The position numbers were made by a program, and so were the translations under genes. The notes beneath the pieces are model-generated. The model was not told the DNA's origin, searched no databases, and saw only the letters and a program-made list of their open reading frames with translations. Positions 7,401 to 56,367 of a stretch of 64,000 nucleotides of DNA are shown in pieces. This stretch comes from a virus. Where the stretch lies: IMG/VR virus record IMGVR_UViG_3300026522_000001, positions 1-64,000 of that record. One strand, written 5' to 3'. Position 1 is the stretch's first letter; every line of letters begins with the position of its first letter.

Positions 7401-7484
7401 TCTTGAGTTACATTACTGTAACTATTTATATTATACAACAATAAAATGTAAATGTCAAATCTTACTCAAATAAAATAAAAAAAA

Positions 7485-7509
7485 CTAGGCACATTAAAAA
7501 TGTGCCTAG
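7485..7509 (-). terminator. Bidirectional intrinsic terminator between VR and TR
   Basis: ctaggcaca-ttaaaaa-tgtgcctag hairpin flanked by an A-run and a T-run. Confidence 0.7.
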
Positions 7510-7559
7510 TTTTTTTTGCCCTATTTTATTTTTTTTCTCTTTTTCTCTTTTTATTCTTT

Positions 7560-21854: not shown

Positions 21855-22514
21855 TCAATTCCTGTGACTTGGGCTATACTCGCCATAATACTTTAATTCT
21901 GCGGCTTTTCTAGCATTTAATGCTTCTTCTTCTGTATCGAACCTACCCAAATGAATAGCCTTTTTATCTACTGTAATATATGCTTCCCATTTACCATAAT
22001 GAAACCTATATCCTTTTGCACCACGTCTATTAAAATTATTATGTGATATTGTAATCCATCTACAATTCTCTGGCGAATATCCTTTATCATTATCAAATCT
22101 ATCTAATTGTAATCCTTCTTTATATCCACTGTTATTAGCCCACTCAACAAATGCTTTTAGACCTTCAACTGTATCTGCCCATTCTTCACATACTTTAATT
22201 CCCCTACCACCGTAATTAGGGTATTTATAATCTTTTTCGTATTCACAACGTTTGTGCATGTCCTTAAAAACTGGGTATAATTTATTACTAGATAAATTAT
22301 GTTTTGTGAAAGTATGCTTTATAGTGCAAGCATGACACATTTTAGTTTTGCTATGCGTTAAATTTGATAATTGTACGTGGTATATTTTTCCACACCCTAA
22401 ACATTTCAAAATCAACATTCTTGCACCACTTTTATTTGGTTTTGGTAGTTCCCCCAAATACTGCCAATGTCCAATAACTTCTCCAACTGTAAAATTGTAC
22501 TTTCTGTTAGCCAT
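21855..22514 (-). CDS. HNH homing endonuclease with AP2 DNA-binding domain and one zinc-ribbon module
   Basis: 219 aa; LDRFDNDKGYSPENCRWITISHNNFN (HNH_3-like), GYRFHYGKWEAYITVDKKAIHLGRFDTEEEA (AP2), N-terminal KCLGCG...CHAC. Confidence 0.75.
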   Translation of the reverse strand: MANRKYNFTVGEVIGHWQYLGELPKPNKSGARMLILKCLGCGKIYHVQLSNLTHSKTKMCHACTIKHTFTKHNLSSNKLYPVFKDMHKRCEYEKDYKYPNYGGRGIKVCEEWADTVEGLKAFVEWANNSGYKEGLQLDRFDNDKGYSPENCRWITISHNNFNRRGAKGYRFHYGKWEAYITVDKKAIHLGRFDTEEEALNARKAAELKYYGEYSPSHRN

Positions 22515-33321: not shown

Positions 33322-36300
33322 TTAATAGCTACCAACAATCTTATTAGTAAACTTAGCACTACCTCTTGTAAAGTCAAGCATAATTCTCTGACCTCTTGGT
33401 GAACGCATAAAGTGTGCTATGGCTTCTTCTTGGTTGCTTACTAATGCTACATTCATATTTGTTGTACTACTTACATTTGTTCCTAAAGTACTAGCAAATG
33501 TACTCATTCCTCTTGCAGTCTCTTGTGCCGCAACTTCACCACCATCTGCAAATTTAGGAACATTTATAATATTTGGTATTCTGCTAAAGTTACCATTATT
33601 TACAGCATTTAAGAATCCTGTTCCGTATTTTCTTACGGCGCTTGCTTTAACAACAAATTCTCCATTACTCAACATCGCAGGTATACTGTCACTTGTTGAT
33701 GTTCCTTCACCTTTAACATTTCCACCTGTAGAGAATTTTCTTATTAGTCCTCCATCCTTATGCCCTTGTTCTTTAGTTCCTTGCCCTGAAGGTATATTTG
33801 CAGCTGCTGTTGCTATAACGTCTAGTGCTTCCTTTGCACTTTTAGCTGAATCACTAAGTTCATCTAAACTAGTCTTTACTTCTGTTGAACTTTGCTGAAC
33901 TGCACTAGATAGCTGTTGCAAAGATGTATTTGTTTGTGATATTGTTGTTTCTATTGAAGCATTATTTGTAGCTTGCTGTGCTTGTGCAGAAGCATTTGCT
34001 ACTGTTGGAGTAGATAATGCTGATTGTGATTTCTTCAATTCACTATATGTTTTATTTTGGTCTAATACTCTAAAGTATCCACCAGTACCATCTTGCATCC
34101 ATGTATTTTTTAAGTCATAATTCTTTTTGCTATTATCCATCTCAAAATAATGACCAGTTTCGGGATTTTTAAGGCCTAATATATCTGAGGAATCTCTATA
34201 TGTTTGTAGACCCTGTATTCCAGTACCATCTTCTGATGCTATAATATGTAGCTGTGACCTGATAGGTGAAAAATAGTCTGTTAAACCATTTTTATCTACA
34301 TTTTTATATTGATTAAGTGTATATATTTGCCCTGGTGTTACTTTAGACGCAAGATTTTCTGTTGTTGGTTGTCTACCAGACTCGTCTTTTACTGGAAACC
34401 ATTGTTGCATAAGCCCTTCAACAAGTCTCTTTGCAAAGAACTTTTGCATTGTCTTTAGGAAATCTACAACCATATTTTGTAGAGCTTCACCTAATGAATG
34501 AGCTTCATTTACCCCGTCTGTAAGGAATGTTACAAGCCCATCTTCTAGTGCTTGTCTTGCAGTTTCATGCGTTTCTTCTAATAAAGTTTTTATATGACTT
34601 AACATACCAGAAATTCTCTCTTTATTAGCTATCTCTTGCATCTGACTCATAGAAGCTGTCTGTCTTTCCATCTGTAAAGCTATATCAGCATTTAACTCAT
34701 CTATTCTTTTTGTTACATTAGCCACTTCTTGAGAGCCTTGTGGAAGTCTATCTCTTTCTGCCTGTTTCTTGCTTAATTCTTCTCTTAATCCTGCTATTTG
34801 TATCTGCCTACTCATATAGTCATTATTCATAGCGGCATATTGTTGTTTATATGCTTTATTTAATTCGGCATTTTTATAGGCTTTCATCTCCTTATTTGCT
34901 TCTTCTCTTTGAAGGTTTGTCATAGGTATATTTTCTAATACACTATTCATGTAGTCATACCTATCAGAAATTGCTTGTGTCATACCATTTAATATACTAT
35001 ATAATTTTTCTTGTGCACTTATTAGCTTTTTCTTTATTTCTTCTGCTTTTTCAGAATTACCCATAGCTGTAAACTCAGCATATTGCTTTACTAGAGCTTC
35101 CATCTGATAAGCAGGTGTTTGTTTAGCAAGATTTATTTTTGTTCTAAGTGTATCTAATTCTTTATTGTACTCTGATAATTCAACATCTGATTTTTTCTTT
35201 GCAACAAAATATGCTTGTTCTTTTATTTTTAGGTCTGATTTTTTCTGATTCCAAATCTTCTGTTCTGCAAGTAAATCATCTCTTGTAATGTTCTTACCTG
35301 CTGTTTTATCAGACATATCAAAGCCCTTATTATACTTAATAAGCATTTCATAGAACTTTTGATTTTCTTTACTAAATTCTTTTCTTACTTTATCATAGTC
35401 TGATTTAGCGTTTTGTGTATTTCTTATATTAGCATATTTACCAATATCAGAACGCTTTAAACCTTCTCTTAAAGAGTCTTGTAAGCCTTTTCTCCAATAA
35501 TAACTATCAAACTGTTTCTTATTCTCATTGTTGTTTCTATACGCCCACTCTTTATCATTAGCTTCTTTCCAACTATTATAATAAGTCTTATATGACTCGT
35601 TCATCATATCATTACCACGAAGTGCTAATAATCTTTGTGTATCTGCATGTAAGTCATTTAATACATTTAGCTTATCAACTATTCCTTGGTTCTTAATATA
35701 ATTACTATCATTTAACTTCTTATATGCACTTTGTAGTTCTTCTTTTGATGAAAGTCTATAATAATAATCACTAAGCATATTTCTACTTTCTTCCATTGAC
35801 TGCCAAGAGTCAACAATATTTTTATTATTACCTGTGTTATTAAATCTCCAAAGTGCATCATTAGCAGGACGTTCTTTATCATTTATTTCTCTATATTTTG
35901 GATTTGATTTATCCCATCCTATTGAATCCATTTCTGTTTTATATTTTTTATATTCAGAAAATAAATAATTAAATTCACTTACTAAATCTTTTGCATTATT
36001 TTGTGACTCAAATACTTCCATCTTGCTTGTAAGATTTTCATAAGCTTTCTTTAATTCACTAAACCCATTAGGATTAGATAGGAAATCATATATTTTTTGT
36101 CTCTTATCGAGTGTATCTCTTATTAAGGATATACTTTCAGGTTTATTTATATAACCTATATATTTTTCTGCTAATTCACCAAAATCTGTATCATAGTTTT
36201 TATATTTTCCATAAGCAACTTCATATGCACGATACTTAGCTGTTGTTTCAAGTCTACTTATATTAAAGTCAAGCTGTTTTTCTAGTGCATCTGTTACAAC

Positions 36301-39300
36301 TTTTGCTGTCTCTTGTCTTATTCTTATATTTAGTGCGTTAACCATATCACTAGCTTCAGGAGAATTACTTCTTTTGGCTTTTTCTAGCTTTTCATAAAGA
36401 CTTCTTAACTTTACTTCAAGCATTGGCTGACTACCAAATATATCAGAATTTATATCACTTAATATATCCTTGTATTCATCTATTTTCTTTTGCATATCTT
36501 CAAATGCTTGCATAGCTTCTTTTGAGCTATGTGGAGAAAATAGAGACATCCTTCCATTAGATGAACCGCCACTTAATGCAACATTCTGTGAACCTGTTCT
36601 TATTACTGCATTTGTTCTAGCTAACCAATAATTTAAGTCTTGTTCCATAATACCACTACCACTAGAAGTATTTGGGTTATTATGTGAGCTGTTTCCTACA
36701 GTATGCTGTGCGTCTTTTACCATAACAACATGACCATAATCATTTGTAACTAAAACATCACCCGGCTGTGCAATACTTGTATTTGTGTCTACTGCAATCC
36801 CTTGACTCTTTGCATCACTAACAAGTCTATCAACATTTGCTACACCTTTAGCATATTCATCTGCTAAGAATGTGTTAAACCAACTACCTAGTCTAACTAC
36901 TGCTTCTACACACCCATTAGCTAAATCAGGCATTTCTGCATTTCTTAGTCCACTATTTAATGCTGTATTCAATGCACTTGTAATAGCATTTCCTGCATTA
37001 AATCCTATCTGCTCTCCTAATGCTTGGTTTCCTATTGAGTTACTAATATAATTAGCTAATGTTATTCCGCTTTGTGAAATTTTCTGCTGATATTCTTGTG
37101 CTAATGAAATATATCCACTTAAGTCATTTGTGGTCATATAACCGCCATTATGGAGTATGTTAAATGCACTAGAAGCATCATGTGACTGTAAGAATCCACT
37201 ATATCTATCTTGTTCTAATACTTCTGCTAAATCTTTAGCGGCGGCTGATAAGTCAGGAAATTTTACATAATATCCACCCTCATTAGAAGGTCTTGCGTCA
37301 CCACGCATTGACATTGGATAATTTTCATTCCACGTTATGCCAGCTGGGTTATTATCATTTACAAATACATCACTTGTTCCTCTTGCTGTTTCATTAGCTA
37401 TAAGTCCTGCTATTATTCCAATATCAGGTGAAGTTCCTGTCTGTGCTTGGATTGCCTTAGAAACTTCTATTGCTAAGTCTAATACTTTATCACCTGTATT
37501 AGCTTGTGCACCATTCGTTCCTGACTGCTGTACCATCTGCATAGAAGAAAGTGCATTACTAAATTGTGCAGATGCTTCAAGCATTACTTCGCTATATGTA
37601 CCTAAGTCTCTACCAATTTCTTTTTGTGTTTGTGTAGCTTTAGCAAGTTCTTTTGTATATTTATTTATTTCTCTTTGTACTTTATGTTCTTCTTTTAGCT
37701 TATCATACTCGTTTGCAAATTTACTTGTCTGTATAGCGGCTAGTTCTTCTTTTGCTTCTTCTAGTCTAGCCGCCGCTTCTTCTTTTTCGATTTCTGTTTT
37801 CTGCATATAATAATCTTTTACAGACTTAAATCCTTCTTTATATGCTATGTCATTTTTTTCAAGTAAATCTTTTAGTGCTTCTATCTTATCGCTAAGAATC
37901 TCTTTTAGTCTTTCTCTGTTTTCTTTTAGCATATCTTGAGATTCTTTAATAGCCGCTCTATTTGCCTTATCTGCTTCTCTTTGTGCTTTAGCTTTTTCTT
38001 TGCTATCGTCAGCAGGTCTGCCTTTTAATGCGTTTTGATTTGGATTTTGAGTTGAAAGTATATGTTCCCTATTATTTAAGAAATTTCTTATACCTTCAAC
38101 AAAATCATGCAAATTCTTATGTGGTTGTGAATTTTCTCCTGCTTCTCTTGCTTGCTGACCTCTTTCTCTCCATCCATTTATGGTTTGAATATCTCTGTAA
38201 GAATTTGTTATTATATCTGCACCTGTAATGGCTATCCCTGCGATTGGGATATATTTCTTTAACATGCCTTTTGCGGCTTCTGCTGCATCTACTCCTGCTT
38301 GTGTAAATGCCTTTGCCGCACCTTCTGCATCACCATGCATCAAATCCCACACAGCCTTAACAACATTGTATAAAGTTCTAAAAATAGCAACAACAGGTTT
38401 TACATATGAAACAATACCTATAAGTACATTCTTAATTATTGCAAAAGCATATAAAGCATCATAACCTAAATCTTCAATAGATGTTTTATTTTCTTCTAAT
38501 AAAGCAATTACATCTATTATTCTTTCTGCAATGAATACTAATAAGCCAACACAAATACTTATTGCGTCGCTAAGTGAATCTACAGAATCTTCTGCCCCTA
38601 GAGATTGCTCTGCATATTCTGCAACCTCTATAATAGCATCACCGATAATTTCAACAAAATTAGCAACAAAATTAAGTAATCCTTCAAATGATTCACTTAA
38701 TGTTATTACAGTAGCATTTTGTTCTTCTAATGCTTGTGTTTCTTCTTCTGTTGCTCCTGTTGCTTCTCTATACTTTGTAGCATCATCTTGCAGTCCTGTA
38801 TCTTCTGCATTTTTATCTACCGCCGCTTGGTCTGATGTATCAATACCATTTCTTGCCGCTGATGATTTCTTTAGCACATCCCATTTTGCAGAGTTTGGAT
38901 TGATTCCCATATCATAGACTGTTGCTATTTGAGAACCTACCCATTTCATAAACTCAATTACAGGCTGTTTTACTGCATCACTATCAAATACACTTGCTAG
39001 TGTTAATTCCCATGTTGATTTTAAGCTGTCAAAAGCACCACCTAGAGTAGCAATGTTTTCTCTGTTTGATGCAACGAAACCTGCTAGTCTATTCTCTAAC
39101 CACGCATATAAATCTTCACCTTTGGCTTTTACTTCTTTAATTTCTTCGTCTGTAATGCCTAGTTGTTTAGCCATTACAGTTCTGTTAGCCATACCATTAA
39201 AGATATCTCTTGTATCTCTTGCGATAGTCAAAGAGTTTAATTGAAGTTCTTTACCAATAGTTGTGAACAAATTAGCCATTTCTTCAATCTGACTAATGTT

Positions 39301-41655
39301 CATTCCTGATTGTAAGCCAGGCTCAATGATTGCTCTAAATGTATTTGTTATTGCTTCTAGGCTAGTACCTGTTTTTATTGCGTCTACTGCTAGTTGCTTA
39401 ACAATACCATCTGCCATATTTAGTGCTTGGCTAAATTGTAGTGGTTGATTATTTAGCAAACCTATTGATGACATAGCACCTGCAATACCATTACGCATCA
39501 TCTGCATAGCGTTTGCCGCTTCTAGCCCAGGCTTTATAATATAATCTTCTATTGCACTACCAATAGATTGTACAACACTAAAAAGTGTTTCTGTTGCTGA
39601 AATAGCACCACCGATTGCAACAGAAAATGCCGCCGCTCCTGCAACCATAGTAGAAAACATCTCTGGGAGAACCGCTAGACCATTGTTTATACCAAGTATT
39701 GACTTTTCTGCCATCTCCGACTGTCTAGCCAATTCGTGCATACCAGAACCAAATCCACGTTCAAAAGAACCTGCTAACTTAGCTAATTCTATCCCTGAAA
39801 GTCTTGTTGTGAGAATATTCTTTAAGGAAGATATTGTAGGCTCATATCTTCCTTCTACATTTGAACGTAATCCTGAACCTAGATTTGCATAGTTATTATT
39901 AACAGCCGCCGCTCTTTGACGTTTTAGCCATTCCCTTCTAGCATATTCATTCTTTATTGAAGGTAGGAAATCACCATATAATTTAGATTCTGCCGCATAA
40001 CTTAGCTTTCCTCTTTCTGTAAGGAATTGCTTCATGTTATTCATGATTCCTAGTGCTTCTTGTACTCTAGCATTTAAGGCTTTATTACCCTTATCAGCAC
40101 TGGTATCAAATTTATTTATTTCTGCAATAGTAGACGCAAGTTGTTTACGTAATTCATTAAACTGTTTACTATCATTATTTACCTCGCGTCTATTCTTCCT
40201 TATAGAGTCAGTTAATCTATCTACACCCGCAGAAGAATTTCCAGTATCACCTAATAACTGTTTAGCATAATTATTAAAGTTATTTTTTCTACTTTCTATT
40301 GTATTTTTTAGTTGTGCCGCTGTATCATATCTAGGGTCTTGTTCTGTTATTGTACCATTCTTGATTTGAGAAAGAAGATTTCTATATACTTTTTGCTGTT
40401 CTGAAATAGAACGTAAAGAATTTAAGAACTCATTTTGTGCCGCTTTTGTTGCATCTCTTTCAGCAACTAATGCATTATATTTACCAAGGTCTCCATCTCT
40501 CCATGCTTTTTCAGCACCTTGAGTAGCATTTTTTATTCTAGTATTAAACTGTTCATTTTTTTCTTTTGCAAGTCTTTCACGACGTTCTTTGTTTTCTAAA
40601 GCTGTTAATGCTCTATCTGTTTTTTCACGTTCTCTTTCAGCTTCTTTATCCTTGCGGATTTGTGCAATTTCTTCTTGCTTTACTTGTCTCCACATGGCAT
40701 CGATTTGCTTATTAGCTTCTGCCCTGCTTCGTCTTTCTTCTCTATCTAAAGCATTATTTGCTCTTGCTATATTATTAGAGGTTCTTATTCGTTCTGCTTT
40801 AGATATTTCAGGCTCATTTATTTTATCAATAACTTCTTGCCCTTTTGCTTTTAGCTGTTGCATTTTAGCATTAGCTGAATCTAGTCCATTACCAAATCCA
40901 TCTATATGAACAGCCTTTGCCTTATCCCCTAGCTCTTGTAAAAGCCCTATTGCCTGTGTTAAAGACCTTTGTGCATTTTTATTATCTGCAAGCCCATCAT
41001 ACATACTTGCTTCTAGCACTTTTACTTGTGCTAGTTTCTGCTTTAGCTTATCTAAATTAGGTGTAAGCCCTGCTTCTTTCTGCATAGTAAAAGAGTCTTT
41101 TATAGCCTTAGAAACAATTCCAGACCTAATTTGATAGCTTGCTATGCTAGGTGAATCTTTTAATGCTTTAGCAACAGCATTTTCATAACTCTTTACTGCC
41201 TTTCTAGCAGAGTCTACATCTAGCCCATTATTCTTTAAGTTTGAAAGCAATAGCCTAGCATCACTAGCCCTATTGTTTCCATATGAAAGATTTCCTGCTA
41301 TTTTTTGATTTGTTATATGGAATGGGGAATTCTTTATAGCAAGAGAGAGCGCCTTTAGTCTATTTAGAGCCGCTTCTAGTTCTGCTATATCTCTCTTTGC
41401 TTGCTTTGTGTCTACCCCTATTTTAATGTCTTTTGCTACAGTTGAAAGTTGTTTGCTTAATCCCTTTGTAGCAACTACTGATTCCCTCTCAAGGCTATTC
41501 TGCAAATTTTTAAGAGGTTTATTTACATCAAATTTTATGTTTGCATCATTTAGACTTCTTTTCCAGTCTGTTATTTTTCTTTTAGCTACGTCTAAATTTG
41601 CTAGTAGACTTTTTACATCCGCTTCTATGTCTACTACTATTTTTTCTCTAGCCAT
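33322..41655 (-). CDS. Tape measure protein with embedded glucosaminidase-like and CHAP/NlpC-P60-like domains
   Basis: 2777 aa; long coiled-coil regions and a Gly/Ala-rich hydrophobic core; NPAGITWNENYP...GGYYVKFPDL block; NGCVEAVVRLGSW...GDVLVTNDYGHVVMV block; follows the frameshifted chaperone. Confidence 0.85.
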   Translation of the reverse strand: MAREKIVVDIEADVKSLLANLDVAKRKITDWKRSLNDANIKFDVNKPLKNLQNSLERESVVATKGLSKQLSTVAKDIKIGVDTKQAKRDIAELEAALNRLKALSLAIKNSPFHITNQKIAGNLSYGNNRASDARLLLSNLKNNGLDVDSARKAVKSYENAVAKALKDSPSIASYQIRSGIVSKAIKDSFTMQKEAGLTPNLDKLKQKLAQVKVLEASMYDGLADNKNAQRSLTQAIGLLQELGDKAKAVHIDGFGNGLDSANAKMQQLKAKGQEVIDKINEPEISKAERIRTSNNIARANNALDREERRSRAEANKQIDAMWRQVKQEEIAQIRKDKEAEREREKTDRALTALENKERRERLAKEKNEQFNTRIKNATQGAEKAWRDGDLGKYNALVAERDATKAAQNEFLNSLRSISEQQKVYRNLLSQIKNGTITEQDPRYDTAAQLKNTIESRKNNFNNYAKQLLGDTGNSSAGVDRLTDSIRKNRREVNNDSKQFNELRKQLASTIAEINKFDTSADKGNKALNARVQEALGIMNNMKQFLTERGKLSYAAESKLYGDFLPSIKNEYARREWLKRQRAAAVNNNYANLGSGLRSNVEGRYEPTISSLKNILTTRLSGIELAKLAGSFERGFGSGMHELARQSEMAEKSILGINNGLAVLPEMFSTMVAGAAAFSVAIGGAISATETLFSVVQSIGSAIEDYIIKPGLEAANAMQMMRNGIAGAMSSIGLLNNQPLQFSQALNMADGIVKQLAVDAIKTGTSLEAITNTFRAIIEPGLQSGMNISQIEEMANLFTTIGKELQLNSLTIARDTRDIFNGMANRTVMAKQLGITDEEIKEVKAKGEDLYAWLENRLAGFVASNRENIATLGGAFDSLKSTWELTLASVFDSDAVKQPVIEFMKWVGSQIATVYDMGINPNSAKWDVLKKSSAARNGIDTSDQAAVDKNAEDTGLQDDATKYREATGATEEETQALEEQNATVITLSESFEGLLNFVANFVEIIGDAIIEVAEYAEQSLGAEDSVDSLSDAISICVGLLVFIAERIIDVIALLEENKTSIEDLGYDALYAFAIIKNVLIGIVSYVKPVVAIFRTLYNVVKAVWDLMHGDAEGAAKAFTQAGVDAAEAAKGMLKKYIPIAGIAITGADIITNSYRDIQTINGWRERGQQAREAGENSQPHKNLHDFVEGIRNFLNNREHILSTQNPNQNALKGRPADDSKEKAKAQREADKANRAAIKESQDMLKENRERLKEILSDKIEALKDLLEKNDIAYKEGFKSVKDYYMQKTEIEKEEAAARLEEAKEELAAIQTSKFANEYDKLKEEHKVQREINKYTKELAKATQTQKEIGRDLGTYSEVMLEASAQFSNALSSMQMVQQSGTNGAQANTGDKVLDLAIEVSKAIQAQTGTSPDIGIIAGLIANETARGTSDVFVNDNNPAGITWNENYPMSMRGDARPSNEGGYYVKFPDLSAAAKDLAEVLEQDRYSGFLQSHDASSAFNILHNGGYMTTNDLSGYISLAQEYQQKISQSGITLANYISNSIGNQALGEQIGFNAGNAITSALNTALNSGLRNAEMPDLANGCVEAVVRLGSWFNTFLADEYAKGVANVDRLVSDAKSQGIAVDTNTSIAQPGDVLVTNDYGHVVMVKDAQHTVGNSSHNNPNTSSGSGIMEQDLNYWLARTNAVIRTGSQNVALSGGSSNGRMSLFSPHSSKEAMQAFEDMQKKIDEYKDILSDINSDIFGSQPMLEVKLRSLYEKLEKAKRSNSPEASDMVNALNIRIRQETAKVVTDALEKQLDFNISRLETTAKYRAYEVAYGKYKNYDTDFGELAEKYIGYINKPESISLIRDTLDKRQKIYDFLSNPNGFSELKKAYENLTSKMEVFESQNNAKDLVSEFNYLFSEYKKYKTEMDSIGWDKSNPKYREINDKERPANDALWRFNNTGNNKNIVDSWQSMEESRNMLSDYYYRLSSKEELQSAYKKLNDSNYIKNQGIVDKLNVLNDLHADTQRLLALRGNDMMNESYKTYYNSWKEANDKEWAYRNNNENKKQFDSYYWRKGLQDSLREGLKRSDIGKYANIRNTQNAKSDYDKVRKEFSKENQKFYEMLIKYNKGFDMSDKTAGKNITRDDLLAEQKIWNQKKSDLKIKEQAYFVAKKKSDVELSEYNKELDTLRTKINLAKQTPAYQMEALVKQYAEFTAMGNSEKAEEIKKKLISAQEKLYSILNGMTQAISDRYDYMNSVLENIPMTNLQREEANKEMKAYKNAELNKAYKQQYAAMNNDYMSRQIQIAGLREELSKKQAERDRLPQGSQEVANVTKRIDELNADIALQMERQTASMSQMQEIANKERISGMLSHIKTLLEETHETARQALEDGLVTFLTDGVNEAHSLGEALQNMVVDFLKTMQKFFAKRLVEGLMQQWFPVKDESGRQPTTENLASKVTPGQIYTLNQYKNVDKNGLTDYFSPIRSQLHIIASEDGTGIQGLQTYRDSSDILGLKNPETGHYFEMDNSKKNYDLKNTWMQDGTGGYFRVLDQNKTYSELKKSQSALSTPTVANASAQAQQATNNASIETTISQTNTSLQQLSSAVQQSSTEVKTSLDELSDSAKSAKEALDVIATAAANIPSGQGTKEQGHKDGGLIRKFSTGGNVKGEGTSTSDSIPAMLSNGEFVVKASAVRKYGTGFLNAVNNGNFSRIPNIINVPKFADGGEVAAQETARGMSTFASTLGTNVSSTTNMNVALVSNQEEAIAHFMRSPRGQRIMLDFTRGSAKFTNKIVGSY

Positions 41656-41754
41656 ATATCCACACCGACCTCTGCTTTCTATATTATATGCCGTACATTT
41701 TATTTATTAACAAAATAGCCGTATCTAACATAAAATTAAATACGGCTAATATAT

Positions 41755-42075
41755 TTATTGCTTCATTTTGTCTAGTAGCTTTGTTATGCGTTTTCCACCG
41801 TTGCCATTACCAGAAAAAGCTAAACCAATCGCCATTGCTGTCATTTCACAGTCATAGGCATTTTTTCGCATGTCTTGCTTTACACACTTTTCATAGTACA
41901 TCATGATTTCTTCTCTACTATATTCTCTTAGTATTTTATCTTTATCGTGACCATGTTCTATTAAGCATTGTATAGCATCATATATGCTTATTTGCTCTTC
42001 TTCTTTTCTGCGTCTAGCTTCTTCTTGACTCCCGCTAACTTCTCGTTTACTTTCGTTATAAATTTCGTAAAAAAA
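41755..42075 (-). other. -1 programmed frameshift extension of the tail assembly chaperone (G/GT-type)
   Basis: Slippery GGT TTT TTT A (A7 run 42069-42075 on + strand). The -1 frame stays open for about 105 codons to a TAA at 41755-41757 (...EYSREEIMMYYEKCVKQDMRKNAYDCEMTAMAIGLAFSGNGNGGKRITKLLDKMKQ). Confidence 0.7.
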
Positions 42076-42467
42076 CCTTCATTTACCTCGTAGATGTTTT
42101 GAATCAAATCAACACTATCTTCAAGTGCAATCATCTCTACATCTTCATCTGTCATTGTGGTTGACTTTACAATTAAATCTTTAATAAAGTCTACACCTTC
42201 ATCACCAATCATAGTTACAAGGTCTACAAAACCTAGTAGACGTATGCTTGTAGTTGTAGCTTTATTATTTTCATCTACATACGAAAGTTCACTTATTGCT
42301 CTACTAAATCCTTCGCTATCTTCCATTAGCCGTTTAACAACACCACTTAGTTTTGTTGTTAGTCTGATAGCATTAAGCATTGAAATTTTCTTTACGATAA
42401 ATTTCTTTGTACCTAGTTTTATTTCTCTTTCTGCCAAGAGTAAATCCATTTCATCTTTTGTACTCAT
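41988..42467 (-). CDS. Tail assembly chaperone (zero-frame product)
   Basis: 159 aa, acidic; sits between the tube and tape measure genes. Confidence 0.7.
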   Translation of the reverse strand: MSTKDEMDLLLAEREIKLGTKKFIVKKISMLNAIRLTTKLSGVVKRLMEDSEGFSRAISELSYVDENNKATTTSIRLLGFVDLVTMIGDEGVDFIKDLIVKSTTMTDEDVEMIALEDSVDLIQNIYEVNEGFFTKFITKVNEKLAGVKKKLDAEKKKSK

Positions 42468-42528
42468 AAAATCTTCCTCATTTCTTTTTATTAATTTTAT
42501 TAGTTTTCTGCATCAATTCATTAATTAT

Positions 42529-42557
42529 ATTATAACATATTTATCAAAAAAATGCAA
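42529..42557 (-). promoter_or_regulatory. Promoter for the chaperone/tape-measure unit
   Basis: Minus strand TTGCAT-N17-TATAAT with TGn extended -10. Confidence 0.5.
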
Positions 42558-42576
42558 TATGCAAAAATGCAATACA

Positions 42577-44382
42577 TTACTGTTTCCACATCCATTTTGT
42601 ATTACCACATCTCCATACTTGAAATGCGCCTAGCTTATCCATTATATACACTTCTTTATTTCCTACTTCTTTATTTATTGCTTCTTCAAACAAATCAGGA
42701 TAATCTTTTTTTAGATATTTTAACTGACAATGCTCTCTTTTTATTTCTTCCCCGTTCAAATACCAATAATATCTAGGTGTAGACTGACTATCAAATTTAT
42801 ACCCCAATACAGGATATATTCCCCCTAAAAAGTAGTCATTATCAGAATAGCTTCTTATGTATTTAGGACTATATTCTCTAATAAAGGCTTTATGCAGTTT
42901 ATTTGCACCGCCTACAATAGTATATCCATCTTTTACACAATACCTGTGTAACTCATATTCGCCACTTTCTGCTTTTGTCAATCTAGGCTTACCAAAAATC
43001 ATTACAGAATATAATTCGTCATTATAAAACAATCCATAATTATACAATGCAAAATGCTTTTGTGTTCTGCCCTGAATATGATATTTGTCACAAAAGCTAT
43101 TTGCTTCTTCCTCTGTAATATGTCTTACAATACATTTTCTTGCATAGATTGCTTTATTTTTTACTAATAATGACCTTAAATACATTTTTATTTTTTCAGA
43201 GTTTTTCTTCCAGTCAACATCAAAAATACTAATTAGATGTACACCATTTTCTTTGCATGTCAAAAATTTTTCTCTATGATATTCTTTATCTTTGCAATAT
43301 AGTTTATTATTTACTGAATGAAATACACTACCGTTATATTCAATAGCTAAATGCTTAGATGGAATATAAATATCAAGCTCTTTTCCACCTAATACACTTC
43401 TATTATGTTGCACTACTTCCTCGTTTGTAATGCTTTTTACATAATCATATATTTCTAATTCTGCTTGTGAACCTCTCTGTGCAATGTTTACACAACCACA
43501 AGAATAGCACTTACCAGCTTTGACGGAAGTAACTCGCATTATCTTATCTTTTCCACAATGTGTACAATGGAATTTCCAAAAAGTTGCCCCGTCTTTAGTA
43601 TAAACATATTCTTTAGCTACTAAATATCCAAACTGTTTCCCTGTAATATCTTCATATCTATGCTCATGTTTTTTATGTCCACAAGAAGTTGTTAAACCAC
43701 TTTTCATTCTTTTACCACAGATAACACACTTCTTTCCGCAAGAACATGTACAATTCCAATAAGCCCTATGTTCTTTAGTATATGCAAAAGAATCAACATG
43801 CAATTCTCCAAAAGTCTTTCCCGTTAAATCCTCACCAAAATGATTATGCTTTCCACAATCATCTGTCTTACCATTTCTTAGCCTTTGTCCACTAGCTACG
43901 CATGTGTTCCCACAATCACATACACAATTCCAATAAAGCCTATTATCTTTACTATATGCAAAAGAAGTTACTGTTAGTTTTCCAAATCTTTTACCAATAA
44001 GTTCTTTTCTTTCTTCCTCTGGCTTACACTTGCCACAGGATTTTCTTCTTCCATTTAACAAAGAGTCTCCATCTGCAATAGTTTCATTTCCACAATCACA
44101 TTTACACCTAAATTTACTTTTACCAACATACTCCAATACAGTAAGGCTACCATACTTATTCCCAATCATATAATCATATTTTGTTGACTTCTTTTTTAAT
44201 ATACATTCTTTACAATGTGTTGTTATACCTTTTGTTAAATTTCCTGTTGCTGTTTCAATAGTGCCACCACAATCACATTTACATAACCAAAGTACCTTTC
44301 CACTATTTGATTTATGGTTGCATTTATTTAATACAACTAAGCTCCCAAATCTTTTCCCAGCTAAATTTAATGCTTTTGGCAT
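42577..44382 (-). CDS. Free-standing homing-endonuclease-like protein: 5 zinc-ribbon repeats, a Vsr/DUF559-like PD-(D/E)xK domain and a conserved C-terminal domain
   Basis: 601 aa; 5 repeats of G(K/R)xFGxLxV...W.C.CDCG...L..G....CG; ELDIYIPSKHLAIEYNGSVFHS; C-terminal half paralogous to ORF 45814-47460. Confidence 0.6.
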   Translation of the reverse strand: MPKALNLAGKRFGSLVVLNKCNHKSNSGKVLWLCKCDCGGTIETATGNLTKGITTHCKECILKKKSTKYDYMIGNKYGSLTVLEYVGKSKFRCKCDCGNETIADGDSLLNGRRKSCGKCKPEEERKELIGKRFGKLTVTSFAYSKDNRLYWNCVCDCGNTCVASGQRLRNGKTDDCGKHNHFGEDLTGKTFGELHVDSFAYTKEHRAYWNCTCSCGKKCVICGKRMKSGLTTSCGHKKHEHRYEDITGKQFGYLVAKEYVYTKDGATFWKFHCTHCGKDKIMRVTSVKAGKCYSCGCVNIAQRGSQAELEIYDYVKSITNEEVVQHNRSVLGGKELDIYIPSKHLAIEYNGSVFHSVNNKLYCKDKEYHREKFLTCKENGVHLISIFDVDWKKNSEKIKMYLRSLLVKNKAIYARKCIVRHITEEEANSFCDKYHIQGRTQKHFALYNYGLFYNDELYSVMIFGKPRLTKAESGEYELHRYCVKDGYTIVGGANKLHKAFIREYSPKYIRSYSDNDYFLGGIYPVLGYKFDSQSTPRYYWYLNGEEIKREHCQLKYLKKDYPDLFEEAINKEVGNKEVYIMDKLGAFQVWRCGNTKWMWKQ

Positions 44383-44473
44383 ATTAAAGTCTCCTTATGC
44401 TCCTTATGTCTCCTTAAAAAATTCTAAATACGGGCATTCCCTGCCCTTGCAGGTCATTCTTATACATACTTAT

Positions 44474-44501
44474 ATTATACCACAAATTGAGCATAAGTCA
44501 A
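44474..44501 (-). promoter_or_regulatory. Own promoter of the 601-aa endonuclease-like gene
   Basis: Minus strand TTGACT-N16-TGgTATAAT. Confidence 0.5.
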
Positions 44502-44599
44502 TTACAATTACATTAAATTTTTATACTAAAAAGAGGGTACTCCTGTGCCGGAATACCCTCTGTTCATAAAAAGGAAAAGAAAGGAAAAGATTTATATGA

Positions 44600-45811
44600 T
44601 TACCACTCAGGTAGATATTCACCTTTACCGCTCTGTGCATCAGAAACACGCTCGATTGCTGTAACCTTTGCATATGGGAACTGTGGGTGGTGTTCTGAAT
44701 CGTCCAAAAAGTCAATTTTTAGCTTATAAGAGCCAAAATCACTTGAGATAAGACCTGAAAGGTCGCCATCAGGCTGCACTTTGACCTTCCAACCTTCTAT
44801 TGTATAGTTGATACCAACATTAGCGTCACCAACAAATAGAAGTTCACCTTCAATATCTCCTGCGTCACCTAGTGAAACATTTGAGAATGTTCTTTCAGGA
44901 ACAGATGCACTAACTAGAACTGTGTCACCTGTCTTTAGTGAACCATTTGGAAGGAATCTTATGATACCTGCTCTTGCATCTTGTTCAGAGCAATCATAGT
45001 CTACACCTTTTACATATGCTGTCTTTGGTGCTACTATTTTTACTTCTGCCATTACACCTGAACTAAATGCTGTAAAAGAATCACTACTAGTTAGTGTTAT
45101 TACTGCTTTTGCACCACTTGCAAGAGTAAATGTTTCTGTTGTACCTGTTGTAGCTGTATACTTCTGTGCCGCGCCTGTAATACCTTCTTTGAAAGTTATT
45201 ACTAGCCCTGCAACATCACCATTAGCTGTGTTTGCTGTGTCTACACTAAAGAATAGTCTTTCATCTGTGCCTGTTGCATAAGCAGTTGCATCAATCTGTA
45301 TTTTACCACCTTTATCATCTGTTAGTGTAGAACCTGTAAAGTTCATAGAAGATGGCGCTGTCTTTACTGTTGCTGTTGCTTTACCTGCACCAACAGGCTT
45401 AACAACAATATCCTTTACATCATAGTATCTATTACCATCTGCATCTGTTAGTGTTATGATTCCTGGAACACTTGCAAGAGTATATGATTCATTAGTTAGT
45501 GTTACCGCTTCTTGCTTTGTTATTGCTTCCTCACCATAAAGACCGAGTGCAAGGTCATATGGGTTGTATTCTGTTAGTGTAAGAGAAGCACTAGGCTTAA
45601 CTGCTGTTGTAACTGTTGCCATTAGCGTTCTCTTTCTATTCATTGAACTGTTCTTTTCGACTGTTGTTACGTCTACTGTAATATTAAATTCATCAACATT
45701 GCCTAGATGGTGGAATCCGTTTGAATCCTTTGATGCACTCTTACGATTAAACCAAACTTCACCCGCCCCTACGAGGAGATCGGAAGCTAGACTTTGTGCC
45801 TGATTACTCAA
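44600..45811 (-). CDS. Major tail (tube) protein with C-terminal Ig-like extension (TTG start)
   Basis: 403 aa; position between neck genes and chaperone; Thr/Ala/Gly-rich beta composition; GGGAGG SD. Confidence 0.65.
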   Translation of the reverse strand: MSNQAQSLASDLLVGAGEVWFNRKSASKDSNGFHHLGNVDEFNITVDVTTVEKNSSMNRKRTLMATVTTAVKPSASLTLTEYNPYDLALGLYGEEAITKQEAVTLTNESYTLASVPGIITLTDADGNRYYDVKDIVVKPVGAGKATATVKTAPSSMNFTGSTLTDDKGGKIQIDATAYATGTDERLFFSVDTANTANGDVAGLVITFKEGITGAAQKYTATTGTTETFTLASGAKAVITLTSSDSFTAFSSGVMAEVKIVAPKTAYVKGVDYDCSEQDARAGIIRFLPNGSLKTGDTVLVSASVPERTFSNVSLGDAGDIEGELLFVGDANVGINYTIEGWKVKVQPDGDLSGLISSDFGSYKLKIDFLDDSEHHPQFPYAKVTAIERVSDAQSGKGEYLPEW

Positions 45812-45813
45812 TA

Positions 45814-47460
45814 TTATTCCTCCCTTAAATTAAACAACCATTTTGTGTTGCCACTTCTATATACCTGACTTGCATTTAATTTTGTCATTACATAAATTTC
45901 TTTATTTGAAGCATTTTCTTTTAATGCTTCATTATAGATGTCTTTATACATTTCTTTTAGGTATTTTAACTGGCATTTTTCTCTTTTAAGCTCTACGCCG
46001 TTTAAGTACCAATAGTATCTAGGGTTTGTATACCCACTAAATGTATATCCTAGTCTATTGTAGATATTACCACTAAAGAAATCATTATCAGAATAGCTTA
46101 CTATTTGTTTTACATTGTGTGTTCTTTCAAAATACTTGTGTAATTTATTTGCCCCACCGACTACTGTATAGCCGTCCTTTACACAATATCTGTGTAATTC
46201 GTAGTAACCTTCTTTATTTTTAACAAATCTTTGATTACCAAAACACATTACACTAATCAATTCATTGTTATAGTATAAACCATAAATATATTTTGAAAGT
46301 CCTTTTCTTGAAGCCCCTTGTAAATGATATTTATTACAAAAGTCTTTATATGTCTCATAGTCTACATGTACTAGAGCGCATTTTCTTGCATATACCACTT
46401 TATTCTTTGTTAGCAATGATTTTAGATACATTTTAATCTTTTGTTTGTTTGATTCCCAGTCAACATCAAAGATATTTATTAAATGTACTCCTTTTTCTTT
46501 TGCTAATTTAAATTTATTAAAATGATATAGCTTGTCAACATTATCATATACGGAATTTACTGTTGCATGAAACATACTTCCATTATATTCTATACCTAAT
46601 TTATATTCAGGTAAATACAAGTCTATTTCTTTACCATCAAGAATTTCTCTTGTTTTTTCTATCTTTATATTTTTATTTAGTGATAATATATAATTTTTAA
46701 TTTCTAATTCTTCACTAGAACCTTCTTTTGCTATTGAAATGCAACCACAAGACTTGACTTCGCCGCGCATTACATATATTTTCTTTGCAATTATTTCATT
46801 ACCACAATCGCATCTAAATTTCCAGTAATGCCTTTTATCATCGCCCACATGGTCGAAACATATAGCTGTTAAATGATTGAATTTTTTATCCGTAATATCA
46901 ATAGTTCTTTCTTCATCTCGTAAACATCCACAAGACTTAGACCTCCCTGCTAATAACTTAGCTTTTTCTACTACTGATGTATTTCCACAATCACACCTAC
47001 ATAACCATTTTGCATCACCAACATAGGAAACTACTGTAAACCTACCAAATCTTCTACCAATAAATGAAGTGTCAATCTTTTTTCTACTACACCCACAAGA
47101 ATAATCTTTATCGTTCTTATGTGATATTAAGTAACTTCTTTTCTTTGTTGTGTAGTTTCCACATTCACACTTACATTTCCACAAGTCATTACCTAAATAT
47201 TCAACAATGGTAAGTTTCCCTATCTTTTTATTTAATAGGTCTTTGTTAAAGTTTTTTCTTTGTGCTTTCTTTCTTTGCTCTTTTCTAAAACACCCACAAG
47301 AAATTACCTTACCAGTATTTAGCAATGAACCTTGTACGGTTGTGTAATTTCCACAATCGCATTTACATAGCCATGCAGTCCGCCCGTTCTTCTTGCCATT
47401 CTCTCGAATAACTGTTAGTCTGCCAAACCGCTTTCCTGAAAGTTCTAGCTTTCGTCCCAC
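45814..47460 (-). CDS. Free-standing homing-endonuclease-like protein, paralog of ORF 42577-44382 (4 zinc-ribbon repeats, GTG start)
   Basis: 548 aa; EIDLYLPEYKLGIEYNGSMFHA; LHRYCVKDGYTVVGGANKLHK and PRYYWYLNGVELKREKCQLKYLK nearly identical to the paralog. Confidence 0.6.
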   Translation of the reverse strand: MGRKLELSGKRFGRLTVIRENGKKNGRTAWLCKCDCGNYTTVQGSLLNTGKVISCGCFRKEQRKKAQRKNFNKDLLNKKIGKLTIVEYLGNDLWKCKCECGNYTTKKRSYLISHKNDKDYSCGCSRKKIDTSFIGRRFGRFTVVSYVGDAKWLCRCDCGNTSVVEKAKLLAGRSKSCGCLRDEERTIDITDKKFNHLTAICFDHVGDDKRHYWKFRCDCGNEIIAKKIYVMRGEVKSCGCISIAKEGSSEELEIKNYILSLNKNIKIEKTREILDGKEIDLYLPEYKLGIEYNGSMFHATVNSVYDNVDKLYHFNKFKLAKEKGVHLINIFDVDWESNKQKIKMYLKSLLTKNKVVYARKCALVHVDYETYKDFCNKYHLQGASRKGLSKYIYGLYYNNELISVMCFGNQRFVKNKEGYYELHRYCVKDGYTVVGGANKLHKYFERTHNVKQIVSYSDNDFFSGNIYNRLGYTFSGYTNPRYYWYLNGVELKREKCQLKYLKEMYKDIYNEALKENASNKEIYVMTKLNASQVYRSGNTKWLFNLREE

Positions 47461-47484
47461 TTTTCATTTCCCCTCTCACTATGT

Positions 47485-47513
47485 ATTATACCACATTTTG
47501 AGGGAAATTTCAA
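47485..47513 (-). promoter_or_regulatory. Own promoter of the 548-aa endonuclease-like gene
   Basis: Minus strand TTGAAA-N17-TGgTATAAT. Confidence 0.5.
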
Positions 47514-47576
47514 CTCCAAAACTCTAACCACCATTTAGCATATTTATATGCAAACATTTTCTTTATTTTATTTTTT

Positions 47577-48062
47577 TTATAATCTATTTTTGCGCCATTC
47601 TATATCTAAAACATAGCGTGCTGAAACTGAAACTGGAGCATTTGTATCTCCATCGCTCAATACTGCTAATGGATTTAGCTTCATCACTATTCCATTGTCT
47701 GCCATGTATCTTTGAAATACAGGTAATAGTTGAGTTATTTCTTGTTCTATTTCATATACTTGCCGATAACAGGAGTCGTCGTAATCGTTCTCTCCATCTT
47801 CTGCCGCACCTTTTACATACATATCTATCCATAACTGAACTATTGCTCCGTTTACCCTGTCCTGTTTATCTAATGATTCTTCTGAACCAAATAGTATCCA
47901 TATTGCAGGATATTCGCCTGTATTACCTGCGCCTACTCTTATTATTAAGTCATCTCTATCAACTAGAGATGGAAATAATATAGAACCATCACTCTTTTTA
48001 TAGTTTCTCAAAAAATTTCTTAGCGTCATAGCTATTGTATACCAATTAACTTCATGTAACAA
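47577..48062 (-). CDS. Neck/tail-completion protein (by position)
   Basis: 161-aa ORF between the head-tail joining genes and the tube module. Confidence 0.45.
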   Translation of the reverse strand: MLHEVNWYTIAMTLRNFLRNYKKSDGSILFPSLVDRDDLIIRVGAGNTGEYPAIWILFGSEESLDKQDRVNGAIVQLWIDMYVKGAAEDGENDYDDSCYRQVYEIEQEITQLLPVFQRYMADNGIVMKLNPLAVLSDGDTNAPVSVSARYVLDIEWRKNRL

Positions 48063-48076
48063 TTTTGTTTCACTCC

Positions 48077-48463
48077 TTAATTTCTATACACAGCCATTGT
48101 ACTAGGAAACTTTCTTCTTTTAGCACTATTACCATCTTTGAAGCTATCAGCTGTTATTTTTGATTCAAGCTCATCTAATAAAGATTTATATAGTCTATAC
48201 TTTAATGAAAAACTGTCATTATTTGCATCTTTACCAACACTAAATGTTGCTTTTCTTTGCGCCGCTGTCATATAAGCAAATGTCTGTGCAAGTCTGCTTA
48301 TTGGATATGGTGTAGGATTAGCAATATCTTTTGGCAAGATGTTAAATGTTAGTGCTAATGATTCTATATACTTAGATGATTCCTCTACTATAGCAGGGGT
48401 TACATAAGTTTTTAAGAGAGCATCATCTAAGTTTTTTGAATTAAAATATTCTCTATTAGCCAT
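48077..48463 (-). CDS. Head-tail connector/adaptor protein (by position)
   Basis: 128-aa ORF overlapping the upstream gene by 8 nt. Confidence 0.45.
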   Translation of the reverse strand: MANREYFNSKNLDDALLKTYVTPAIVEESSKYIESLALTFNILPKDIANPTPYPISRLAQTFAYMTAAQRKATFSVGKDANNDSFSLKYRLYKSLLDELESKITADSFKDGNSAKRRKFPSTMAVYRN

Positions 48464-48992
48464 TAAGTAACCTCTCTAAGTTTTTGCTAAAAATCTTACT
48501 TATAGAAACAGACTTCTTTGCATTTATTACAGGTTTTTCTAAGTCTATTGGCGATGTACCCGGATGAAGTACTCTATGAACAACTATATATTTATCCATT
48601 TTCTCCCAATAAAACTTTAGCTTTTTATGTGGTGTATATTTACCAACTATCTCATGTGGTCTTGTACCATTCTGCACATATGGAGCATAATAATAATCTT
48701 TACCATGTTCTCTATGTACAGCTATTCTTTCGTTTATATATATAGTACCACCTTTTGCACCGTTTACTAACCTATATTGTATTGCTCGTTCTAGTCTGCC
48801 GCTTCTTGTCTTAAAAGAAGGATGGTGATGTCTTGCATACATAGTAATTTTTTCACAGGCTTCTACTAGACTGTCTCTTATAAAAGCATTGATGTCAACA
48901 TCTTTTATAATCCCTTCTTCTAGTCCTTTTGAAAGTTTATTTCTAAACTTAACTGCAACCCTACTACCTACATTATTAAGTATATCTGCCAC
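48456..48992 (-). CDS. HK97 gp10-family head-tail joining protein
   Basis: 178 aa; FKTRSGRLERAIQY...YAPYVQNGTRPH pattern. Confidence 0.55.
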   Translation of the reverse strand: MADILNNVGSRVAVKFRNKLSKGLEEGIIKDVDINAFIRDSLVEACEKITMYARHHHPSFKTRSGRLERAIQYRLVNGAKGGTIYINERIAVHREHGKDYYYAPYVQNGTRPHEIVGKYTPHKKLKFYWEKMDKYIVVHRVLHPGTSPIDLEKPVINAKKSVSISKIFSKNLERLLNG

Positions 48993-56338: not shown

Positions 56339-56367
56339 ATTATACCACAGGTTAAGCCCTGTGTCAA
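56339..56367 (-). promoter_or_regulatory. Consensus promoter upstream of the tRNA array
   Basis: Minus strand TTGACA (56362-56367)-N17-TATAAT (56339-56344). Confidence 0.6.

Follow-up and report, generated by a model that had tools for sequence, protein, structure and literature searches.

The gene for the Hef protein of the T-even phage U5 ('homing endonuclease-like function') lies between nrdA and nrdB, the second of which the protein is reported to cleave, and Hef-type proteins were placed in the EDxHD homing-endonuclease family by Taylor et al. (2011). The prototype of this family, I-Bth0305I (PDB 3r3p), is intron-encoded in recA and has a DNA-binding region of the NUMOD/helix-turn-helix (HTH) type ahead of a C-terminal nuclease domain. 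Hef and Hef-like genes of T4-like, Campylobacter, ViI-like and jumbo phages are free-standing, lie between conserved essential genes and are present in several copies per genome, and in LIMEstone1 a Hef-like gene is located next to the tail tube gene. From a different perspective, Iyer et al. (2021) described Mom domains of jumbo phages fused to nucleases of the restriction endonuclease (REase) fold, five of them in PA5oct, which were read as combining momylation and restriction. The literature describes the Hef-like family, then, in two incompatible ways, as homing endonucleases and as Mom-type DNA modifiers fused to a restriction nuclease. Here, two genes of this family, named A and B, are analysed that flank the major tail (tube) gene in an uncultivated phage of the gut whose tail genes are of the siphovirus type, in a stretch of 64,000 nucleotides (nt) corresponding to positions 1 to 64,000 of the IMG/VR record IMGVR_UViG_3300026522_000001 (hereafter the window).

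Gene A (open reading frame (ORF) 42577-44382, minus strand, ATG start) encodes a protein of 601 amino acids (aa) and lies downstream of the tube gene (44600-45811, minus strand), and gene B (ORF 45814-47460, minus strand, GTG start) encodes a protein of 548 aa and lies between a 161-aa head-tail gene (47577-48062, minus strand) and the tube gene. Both genes are intact and their products are 47% identical across 547 aa (E 6e-161); A matches phrog_559 (E 2e-82) and phrog_3339 (E 4e-77), B matches phrog_3339 (E 1.5e-75), the PHROG labels for the two proteins reading homing or HNH endonuclease, and public data contain a protein 92% identical to A. Each product combines an N-terminal array of Zn-ribbon modules, a central Vsr-like nuclease domain and a C-terminal domain with a Mom-like GNAT fold. 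The evidence makes it probable that A and B belong to the Hef-like branch of the EDxHD homing endonucleases, as free-standing genes flanking the tube gene. An initial annotation of this DNA had proposed free-standing homing endonucleases of a poorly characterised architecture; the latter description must be abandoned, as the architecture is that of the named Hef-like family, with annotated members in hundreds of phages. Family, nuclease class and Mom fusion are all known from earlier work, free-standing Hef-like genes beside structural genes are frequent in phages, and A and B are members of this family in an unsampled gut phage lineage.

The central domain comprises aa 300-405 in A (43168-43485, minus strand) and aa 239-349 in B (46414-46746, minus strand), where it was recognised by a nuclease hidden Markov model (HMM) at E 1.7e-50. 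The Vsr/DUF559-like block noted initially, E(L/I)D(I/L)Y(I/L)P..(H/K)L(A/G)IEYNGS(V/M)FH, was found in both proteins, and its predicted fold matched I-Bth0305I, Vsr and a DUF559 protein. An AlphaFold2 (AF2) model of A residues 300-408 (predicted local distance difference test score, pLDDT, 88.5) showed an alpha-beta-beta-beta-alpha-beta core as in restriction-type nucleases. When this model was compared with the PDB by Foldseek, I-Bth0305I ranked first (E 2e-4, template modelling scores 0.67/0.74), followed by RAP-domain (mitoribosomal) proteins, Vsr (1cw0, 1vsr) and the DUF559 protein 3hrl, with Vsr and 3hrl within the top 11.

The sequence of I-Bth0305I was taken from the genome of phage 0305phi8-36 (ORF029, 266 aa), in which, in agreement with the published residues, positions 170, 196, 208, 213 and 222 hold E, D, N, H and D. 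The nuclease profile aligned with it (hhalign E 4e-5; hmmsearch 22 bits) in such a way that E170, D196, N208, H213 and D222 correspond to E308, D337, N350, H355 and D365 of A, with E206 matching the extra acidic residue E348. All five EDxHD residues and the extra acidic residue are present in B too (E251, D280, E291, N293, H298 and D309), and among about 140 diverse relatives these positions are 86-97% conserved, except for the last Asp (40%). By modelled fold and by motif, A and B belong to the EDxHD homing-endonuclease family and would be expected to cleave DNA.

Scanning A and B against Pfam and NCBIfam yielded nothing useful (no Pfam match at E <= 0.1), and sequence and profile searches of the PDB with A and B returned nothing, even at E 10, so the fold assignments rest on AF2 and Foldseek. 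At the sequence level no match to Vsr was obtained: an hhalign comparison of the nuclease profile with the one E. coli Vsr sequence used was uninformative in both global and local mode, and the link to Vsr rests on the fold and on I-Bth0305I; Hef-like relatives also gave sub-threshold matches to DUF559 and MTES_1575. The nuclease domains of A and B share with E. coli Vsr and with DUF559 and RAP-domain proteins the Vsr-like variant of the restriction-endonuclease fold, but differ from Vsr in having an acidic residue for its F62 and Asn for its H64, and in a mobile-gene context in place of mismatch repair. I-Bth0305I, despite being the best structural match of the A nuclease domain with aligned catalytic residues, differs from A and B in its location in a recA intron, in its type of N-terminal DNA-binding region and in having no GNAT domain.

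Two other assignments were considered and discarded. The HNH label attached to phrog_559 and phrog_374 does not apply to A and B, in which no HNH match was found in Pfam or NCBIfam and the sole nuclease-like domain has a Vsr-like fold. An intron or intein location was rejected, since the tube ORF is continuous and both genes are intergenic with their own promoters; a search of Rfam at E <= 1 gave no match in 41000-48500. The proposal of free-standing homing endonucleases made initially is partly upheld, by the uninterrupted tube gene, by the lack of an Rfam intron match in that region and by the fact that the closest solved relative is a homing endonuclease, with cleavage and homing remaining predicted activities.

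The N-terminal part of A (aa 5-299; 43486-44370, minus strand) is an array of five modules of about 55-60 aa beginning at aa 9, 74, 130, 188 and 248, which a repeat HMM detected as five domains at 1e-21 to 1e-27. The array of B (aa 5-238; 46747-47448, minus strand) consists of four modules beginning at aa 9, 77, 135 and 191, also detected as four domains. With each repeat of A and B matching at 1e-20 to 1e-27, the five and four Zn-ribbon repeats annotated initially in these ORFs of 601 and 548 aa were recovered in full. The modules follow the consensus G(K/R)xFGxLxV...WxCxCxCG...L..G...SCGC, with a CxC...CxxC pattern of Cys residues. The array has no Pfam family at threshold and is presumed to be a sequence-reading DNA-binding region.

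Relatives of A and B were found by tblastn in 511 annotated phage genomes, including Campylobacter phages with 10-12 copies each, annotated as 'Hef-like homing endonuclease'. The module formed by the nuclease and GNAT domains was present in 416 phage records and in 20,579 representative protein clusters, nearly all of which have it C-terminally, preceded by an N-terminal region that varies. In Escherichia phage N2 (Tequatrovirus), a Hef-like gene lies between nrdA and nrdB, the locus of U5 hef, and its product is 33% identical to A over 273 aa (E 1e-27), exclusively in the nuclease and GNAT domains, its N-terminal region being unrelated to that of A. The Hef-like protein of Campylobacter phage CPX is 29% identical to A over 94% of its length, but carries a different Cys-rich repeat N-terminally in place of the four to five CxC...CxxC Zn-ribbon modules of A and B. 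Homologs encoded on other contigs are up to 60% identical to A over the C-terminal 306 aa, compared to 57% between A and B. A recent tandem duplication as the origin of A and B was therefore rejected, the two being 47% identical overall and A being about equally close to proteins of other contigs. No further copies of the nuclease or GNAT domains were detected in the window at E <= 0.01. Neither megablast of the region nor tblastn of the tube protein against annotated phages gave any match; in IMG/VR, a single-sequence scan found nothing and an alignment-based scan found relatives.

The two genes had been described initially as direct repeats of about 0.9 kb bracketing the tube gene. A diverged repeat is indeed present, but it measures 783 bp with 68.6% identity, and its longest exact run is 18 bp. 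As this identity and this run length are too low, recombination between A and B that would delete the tube gene is expected to be inefficient.

The tube neighbourhood was compared across 20 loci from public assemblies and IMG/VR (designated by L numbers), the contig of the window included, whose tube proteins are 46-100% identical to that of the window. The upstream slot, corresponding to gene B, was filled in five of them (the contig of the window, two close relatives, L006 and L007) and empty in the other 15. In empty genomes the stop codon of the upstream gene is followed by 22 nt and then by the GTG start of the tube gene, whereas in filled genomes the endonuclease gene sits exactly in this 22-nt spacer, between the stop codon of the upstream gene and the Shine-Dalgarno (SD) sequence of the tube gene. 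The empty loci L010 and L011 and the filled loci L006 and L007 have flanks that are 87-92% identical. Within the tube region itself, identity between empty and filled alleles was 55-56% over the first 60 nt, rose to 76-78% over the following 60 nt and reached roughly 85-98% over most of the rest, whereas the two filled alleles were 95-98% identical across this 5' tract. The low-identity tract fits a target at the 5' end of the tube gene, because a resistant sequence co-converted with the gene would give this pattern; the target of B is probably located there. By this distribution B behaves as a recent invader, a recently spreading, putatively homing, free-standing endonuclease gene.

In L010 (5965-6000) and at the equivalent position in L011, where no homing endonuclease gene precedes the tube gene, gene callers place its start at an internal ATG, giving 396 aa; its conserved N-terminus, MANQ..., is encoded from a GTG located 36 nt further upstream and preceded by a AAGGGGGA SD sequence. 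Most public contigs with tube homologs are only 1.3-2.5 kb, barely longer than the gene, and assemblies seem to break at both of its ends, a pattern to be expected from repeated or polymorphic flanks in the populations sampled.

The downstream slot, corresponding to gene A, behaved differently. Presence/absence polymorphism in tube-gene neighbourhoods had been anticipated, and it was found as a clean intergenic insertion for B, but a gene with a Zn-ribbon array occupied the downstream slot in all 18 loci with enough sequence, across the full range of tube identities, so that the data do not show a simple sporadic selfish element in the case of A. The alleles that fill this slot are non-orthologous. 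Divergence of the catalytic module (nuclease plus GNAT domain) in part parallels that of the tube gene, as in L006, L007 and L010 (91-94% vs. 85-89%). Other pairs of loci are incongruent when the tube and the module are compared (L002-L004, 84% vs. 57%; L002-L005, 77% vs. 91%; L022-L024, 99% vs. 81%), and between L006 and L022 the tube is 55% identical and the module 68%.

The arrays of the downstream genes are less stable than their catalytic modules: between L010 and L006, the module is 85% identical and the array 40%. Moreover, ORFs with three to five Zn-ribbon modules and no more than the beginning of a nuclease are found in L006 (7262-8263), L007 (7221-8264) and L022 (6316-7158), each ending just past the first nuclease helix (GSKAELEI...) and lying immediately upstream of a full-length Hef-like gene. 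These array-only ORFs look like displaced arrays, left when a new array recombined ahead of the old catalytic module. In the same slot, L021 (6311-7534) and L023 (6270-7538) carry genes with three Zn-ribbon modules and a different DUF559-like motif (RPDYR...IVEIDGVPHY), devoid of a GNAT domain, and L005 has after its 601-aa gene a third Hef-like gene, cut by the contig end (9287-10375), indicating that the downstream slot can hold two full copies. In the A slot, the catalytic module would have been inherited largely vertically, with arrays replaced by recombination at the boundary between array and nuclease. Two further observations concern these loci: L004 has a 135-aa ORF (7416-7823), without a PHROG match and absent from the window, between the tube gene and the downstream Hef-like gene, and the tube homolog of L028 (5001-6602; 534 aa) is about 130 aa longer than the others and could contain an inserted domain or a mobile insertion.

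Ratios of non-synonymous to synonymous substitutions (dN/dS) were 0.02-0.32 in every domain of A and B and 0.16-0.21 in the tube gene. Only the Zn-ribbon array of B exceeded the tube gene (0.22 and 0.32), the values for A being 0.02-0.13. All domains of A and B are, by this measure, under purifying selection.

These data bear on the possibility that A is a domesticated resident nuclease that helps the phage, e.g. by marker exclusion of related co-infecting phages, and that only B is currently mobile. The constant occupation of the downstream slot down to 46% tube identity, the conservation of the module to the same degree as the tube protein or more between clades (as in the L006-L022 pair), the strong purifying selection, the insulation of A from the tube operon by its own promoter and a terminator, and an array turnover that resembles an arms race are all in its favour. 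However, the allele replacements and incongruences mentioned above (L002-L004, L002-L005, L022-L024), the extra copy in L005 and the GNAT-less variant of L021 and L023 are what repeated invasion would produce, and the sample is of 20 loci only. In addition, exclusion and homing are both outcomes of the same cleavage, so this explanation, which we consider possible though rather unlikely, overlaps with the homing interpretation rather than replacing it. The slot of A is in any case an old hot spot that is always filled, and the turnover of its arrays is compatible both with homing that continues between lineages and with retention of the gene for competition among phages.

The C-terminal domain comprises aa 406-601 of A (42580-43167, minus strand) and aa 350-548 of B (45817-46413, minus strand; GNAT-domain HMM E 3e-93). 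In the initial annotation it was considered nearly identical in both proteins; its motifs are indeed present in both, but the identity is 59%, and the Mom-like GNAT fold had been missed. The C-terminal 170 aa of A match phrog_1384, 'Mom-like DNA modification protein' (E 4e-14). An AF2 model of A residues 296-601 (pLDDT 93.9) had as its first and second Foldseek matches in the PDB the Mom protein of phage Mu (8bv8, E 3e-8), followed by more than 40 GNAT acetyltransferases. In a library of viral structures, the same model matched full-length relatives, among them a protein of PA5oct annotated as 'putative homing endonuclease' (300 residues matched, E 8e-32), and stand-alone Mom proteins. Structure prediction for each domain, which had been suggested at the outset, led in this way to the I-Bth0305I fold for the nuclease block and to a Mom-like GNAT fold for the C-terminal domain. 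Both A and B fall below the gathering threshold of the Pfam Mom family (PF25680); the homolog P0006 passes it (37.2 vs. 27.1 bits), and P0032 and P0002 fail.

Mu Mom is a stand-alone GNAT enzyme that modifies DNA adenines, transferring glycine from glycyl-tRNA to adenine N6, whereas in A and B the GNAT domain is fused behind a nuclease. In Mom, R111, S124 and R151 are essential and H58, Y59, W48, D149, Y159 and W181 important. A profile of the Hef GNAT domain was aligned with a profile of 100-odd Mom homologs (E 1.4e-4), positions near the gap being uncertain. The Mom residues H58, R111, D149 and Y159 are kept as H435, R480, D514 and Y523 of A and are 83-98% conserved family-wide, with R480, the counterpart of the essential R111, at 98%. 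These residues lie in a domain in which R415, E477 and the loop G491-G492-A493 were also mapped in A, the G-G-A loop being at the cofactor-binding position. In contrast, Mom S124 falls in a six-residue deletion adjoining this invariant loop (G491-G492), and Mom R151 corresponds to D516 of A, an Asp in B as well, the family having Asp in 46% and Arg in 24%. Also lost are W48 (a dimer residue), Y59 and W181. For the HTH-like insertion of Mom (about 175-209), which is required for activity, the alignment stops at Mom 188, and the A model has helices after the GNAT core. Judged by these residues, the GNAT domain appears to be related to Mom and to have a conserved pocket, without being a Mom-type enzyme; most likely it derives from a DNA-modifying enzyme and serves for nucleic-acid binding or dimerisation. 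It is, nonetheless, an integral and strongly conserved part of the protein.

The same comparison bears on the proposal that these are self-protecting restriction and modification enzymes, in which the Mom-like domain would acylate or aminoacylate adenines of the phage's own DNA and the REase-fold domain would attack unmodified DNA of the host or of competitors. Such a function was predicted by Iyer et al. (2021) for Mom-REase fusions, which share their architecture with A and B, a PA5oct protein of this architecture being a top structural match. It also agrees with Mu Mom as the best PDB match of the GNAT domain, with the four conserved pocket residues and the G-G-A loop, and with a dN/dS of about 0.1 in this domain. 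Nevertheless, two of the three essential Mom residues (S124 and R151) have no counterpart, W48 and W181 are lost too, and the T4-type Hef at the nrdA-nrdB locus has no SYSD motif. Long, rapidly swapped arrays and a site-specific insertion polymorphism point furthermore to rare specific targets and not to genome-wide restriction, and a PADLOC search gave no match, so that membership in a known defence system was rejected. Insertion polymorphism and array swapping at the tube locus fit homing or exclusion better, and restriction plus momylation is rated lower than homing, and in itself as distinctly unlikely, because of the missing essential residues and the site-specific genomic behaviour.

A related suggestion is that Hef-type enzymes are bifunctional, with an active acyl- or aminoacyltransferase GNAT domain that, guided by the array, would mark in the genome of the carrier the very site which the enzyme recognises. 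This is unlikely on the present evidence; if true, a bifunctional Hef would be a homing endonuclease with built-in self-immunity, a single-chain, site-specific restriction-modification homing element, and this would explain both a GNAT pocket that is near-invariant over about 20,000 clusters and the persistence of the downstream copy in all relatives. The residue comparison, with four pocket residues kept and two of the three essential ones lost, sharpens the choice between the Hef and Mom descriptions of the family, and the use of glycyl-tRNA by Mom makes the question directly testable.

Under the preferred interpretation, that of Hef-like homing endonucleases, A and B would each be transcribed from their own host-type extended -10 promoter, whose sequence is evident and conserved in relatives. 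The N-terminal array of four to five Zn-ribbon modules would then read a long DNA target, and the central Vsr-like domain would cut through the E/D/(E)xN/H/D constellation, the residues of which are all present. During co-infection the cut would fall in a related phage genome that does not carry the gene, and its repair would copy the endonuclease gene and the adjoining tube sequence into the cut genome, as suggested by characterised members of the family and by the insertion signature at the upstream slot.

Several points weigh against this interpretation. The experimental anchor of the family, U5 Hef, has a different N-terminal region, and cleavage and homing by members with Zn-ribbon arrays are presumed by analogy. 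A gene retained because it benefits the phage accounts better for an always filled downstream slot and for a catalytic module conserved to the level of the tube protein than does a purely selfish element, which would be expected to decay after fixation. The divergence tract beside B could reflect the recombination history of the region and not a target site. Finally, the near-invariant GNAT pocket, the one feature left unexplained by plain homing, is a hint of a further activity for which such a model has no need.

Compared to what had been described for the family, the present analysis adds a residue-level comparison with Mom and I-Bth0305I, a mapped empty/filled site and the swapping of arrays at a domain boundary. 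The related loci constitute an unusually clean natural experiment for the Hef-like family, with a precise empty/filled site, a tract that predicts the cut of the upstream enzyme and repeated array replacement, and they could help to map the target sites of a DNA-recognition scaffold that is modular.

The expression signals around both genes were also analysed. In the order of transcription of the minus strand, the 161-aa head-tail gene is followed by B, the tube gene, A, a tail assembly chaperone gene (41988-42467, minus strand) and a tape measure gene (33322-41655, minus strand; 2777 aa). The tube gene encodes a 403-aa protein from a TTG start, matches phrog_807 (E 3e-32) and PF27730 (on its product), and 320 homologs of its protein were found. 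The promoter of A (44474-44501, minus strand) consists of TTGACT, 16 nt and TG-n-TATAAT and is kept in L003 and L005, and that of B (47485-47513, minus strand) consists of TTGAAA, 17 nt and TG-n-TATAAT and is kept in L004 and L005. Each matches the consensus in 11 of 12 positions in addition to the extended -10 TG, and the two are the best sigma-70-like sites in 41600-48200, which corroborates the individual extended -10 promoters annotated initially.

An intrinsic terminator with a 12-bp stem (six GC pairs) and a T run follows the tube gene (44532-44561, minus strand), with compensating changes in L005, and insulates A from the late operon. As no terminator is present between B and the tube gene, the B promoter may also feed transcription of the latter. 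The SD sequence of the tube gene is formed, as had been noted, by the last codons of B (TTA AGG GAG GAA TAA), 7 nt ahead of the TTG start. In the relative L004 it lies outside the upstream ORF.

This arrangement is relevant to the alternative that A and B, though endonuclease-like, have no nuclease activity and regulate the expression of tail genes by binding DNA or RNA. The genes flank the most highly expressed tail gene, the 3' end of B overlaps the tube SD, and Zn-ribbon arrays could bind nucleic acid without cutting. Against it, the catalytic residues are intact in A and B and highly conserved across the family, most relatives have no upstream gene and have a tube SD of their own, and in L004 the tube SD is separate from the upstream ORF; such a regulatory role is very improbable.

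The triplicated SD sequence reported upstream of A is present as a tandem TAAGGAG repeat (44389-44416, minus strand), of which only the last copy is at a working distance from the ATG. However, the TAAGGAG(A)CA unit occurs in three copies in the window, four in L003 and one in L005, and the triplication was accordingly rejected as a functional conserved feature; the varying copy number suggests slippage and not a designed multiple ribosome-binding site.

The module of the arrays was also found outside the tube locus. The ORF 21855-22514 (minus strand, 219 aa), located among tail and baseplate genes, contains one Zn-ribbon module of the A/B type, a YGGRGIKVCEEW motif and an AP2-like C-terminus. 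The initial annotation, which called it an HNH-AP2 gene, was right about the shared module, present once, but an HNH domain was undetectable and Pfam gave no HNH match. It matches phrog_374 'HNH endonuclease' with E 1.7e-60, but only over profile positions 191-412 of 617, and gave a weak match to the A/B repeat HMM (E 0.0085). This ORF may be what is left of a further mobile endonuclease gene that has lost its nuclease. The 'HNH endonucleases' of phrog_374 with Zn-ribbon arrays share the module (profile positions about 191-262) with A, B and this ORF, whereas A and B carry a Vsr-like nuclease and not HNH.

Bacillus phage 0305phi8-36 encodes a second protein of interest, the free-standing 170-aa ORF194 'homing nuclease' (L030, 14861-15373), which has a Cys-rich N-terminus and matches the Hef nuclease profile at E 1.7e-5. 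The phage of I-Bth0305I therefore also carries a small Zn-finger/EDxHD-like gene.

Some additional features of the window were recorded. The promoter box TGTGGTATAAT, an 11-mer, has a third exact copy at 56339-56349 (minus strand), with a 518-aa DUF2828/DUF7788/VWA gene on its upstream side and the terminase genes on its downstream side, and is exact only there and in both endonuclease promoters. The 2777-aa tape measure protein implies a very long tail, and the tape measure genes of relatives have an SLT domain. The GC and AT skews flip sign near 59-60 kb, where the genes change to the plus strand (PhoH-like, phosphoesterase), and the first 2 kb of the window have a GC content of only 22%.

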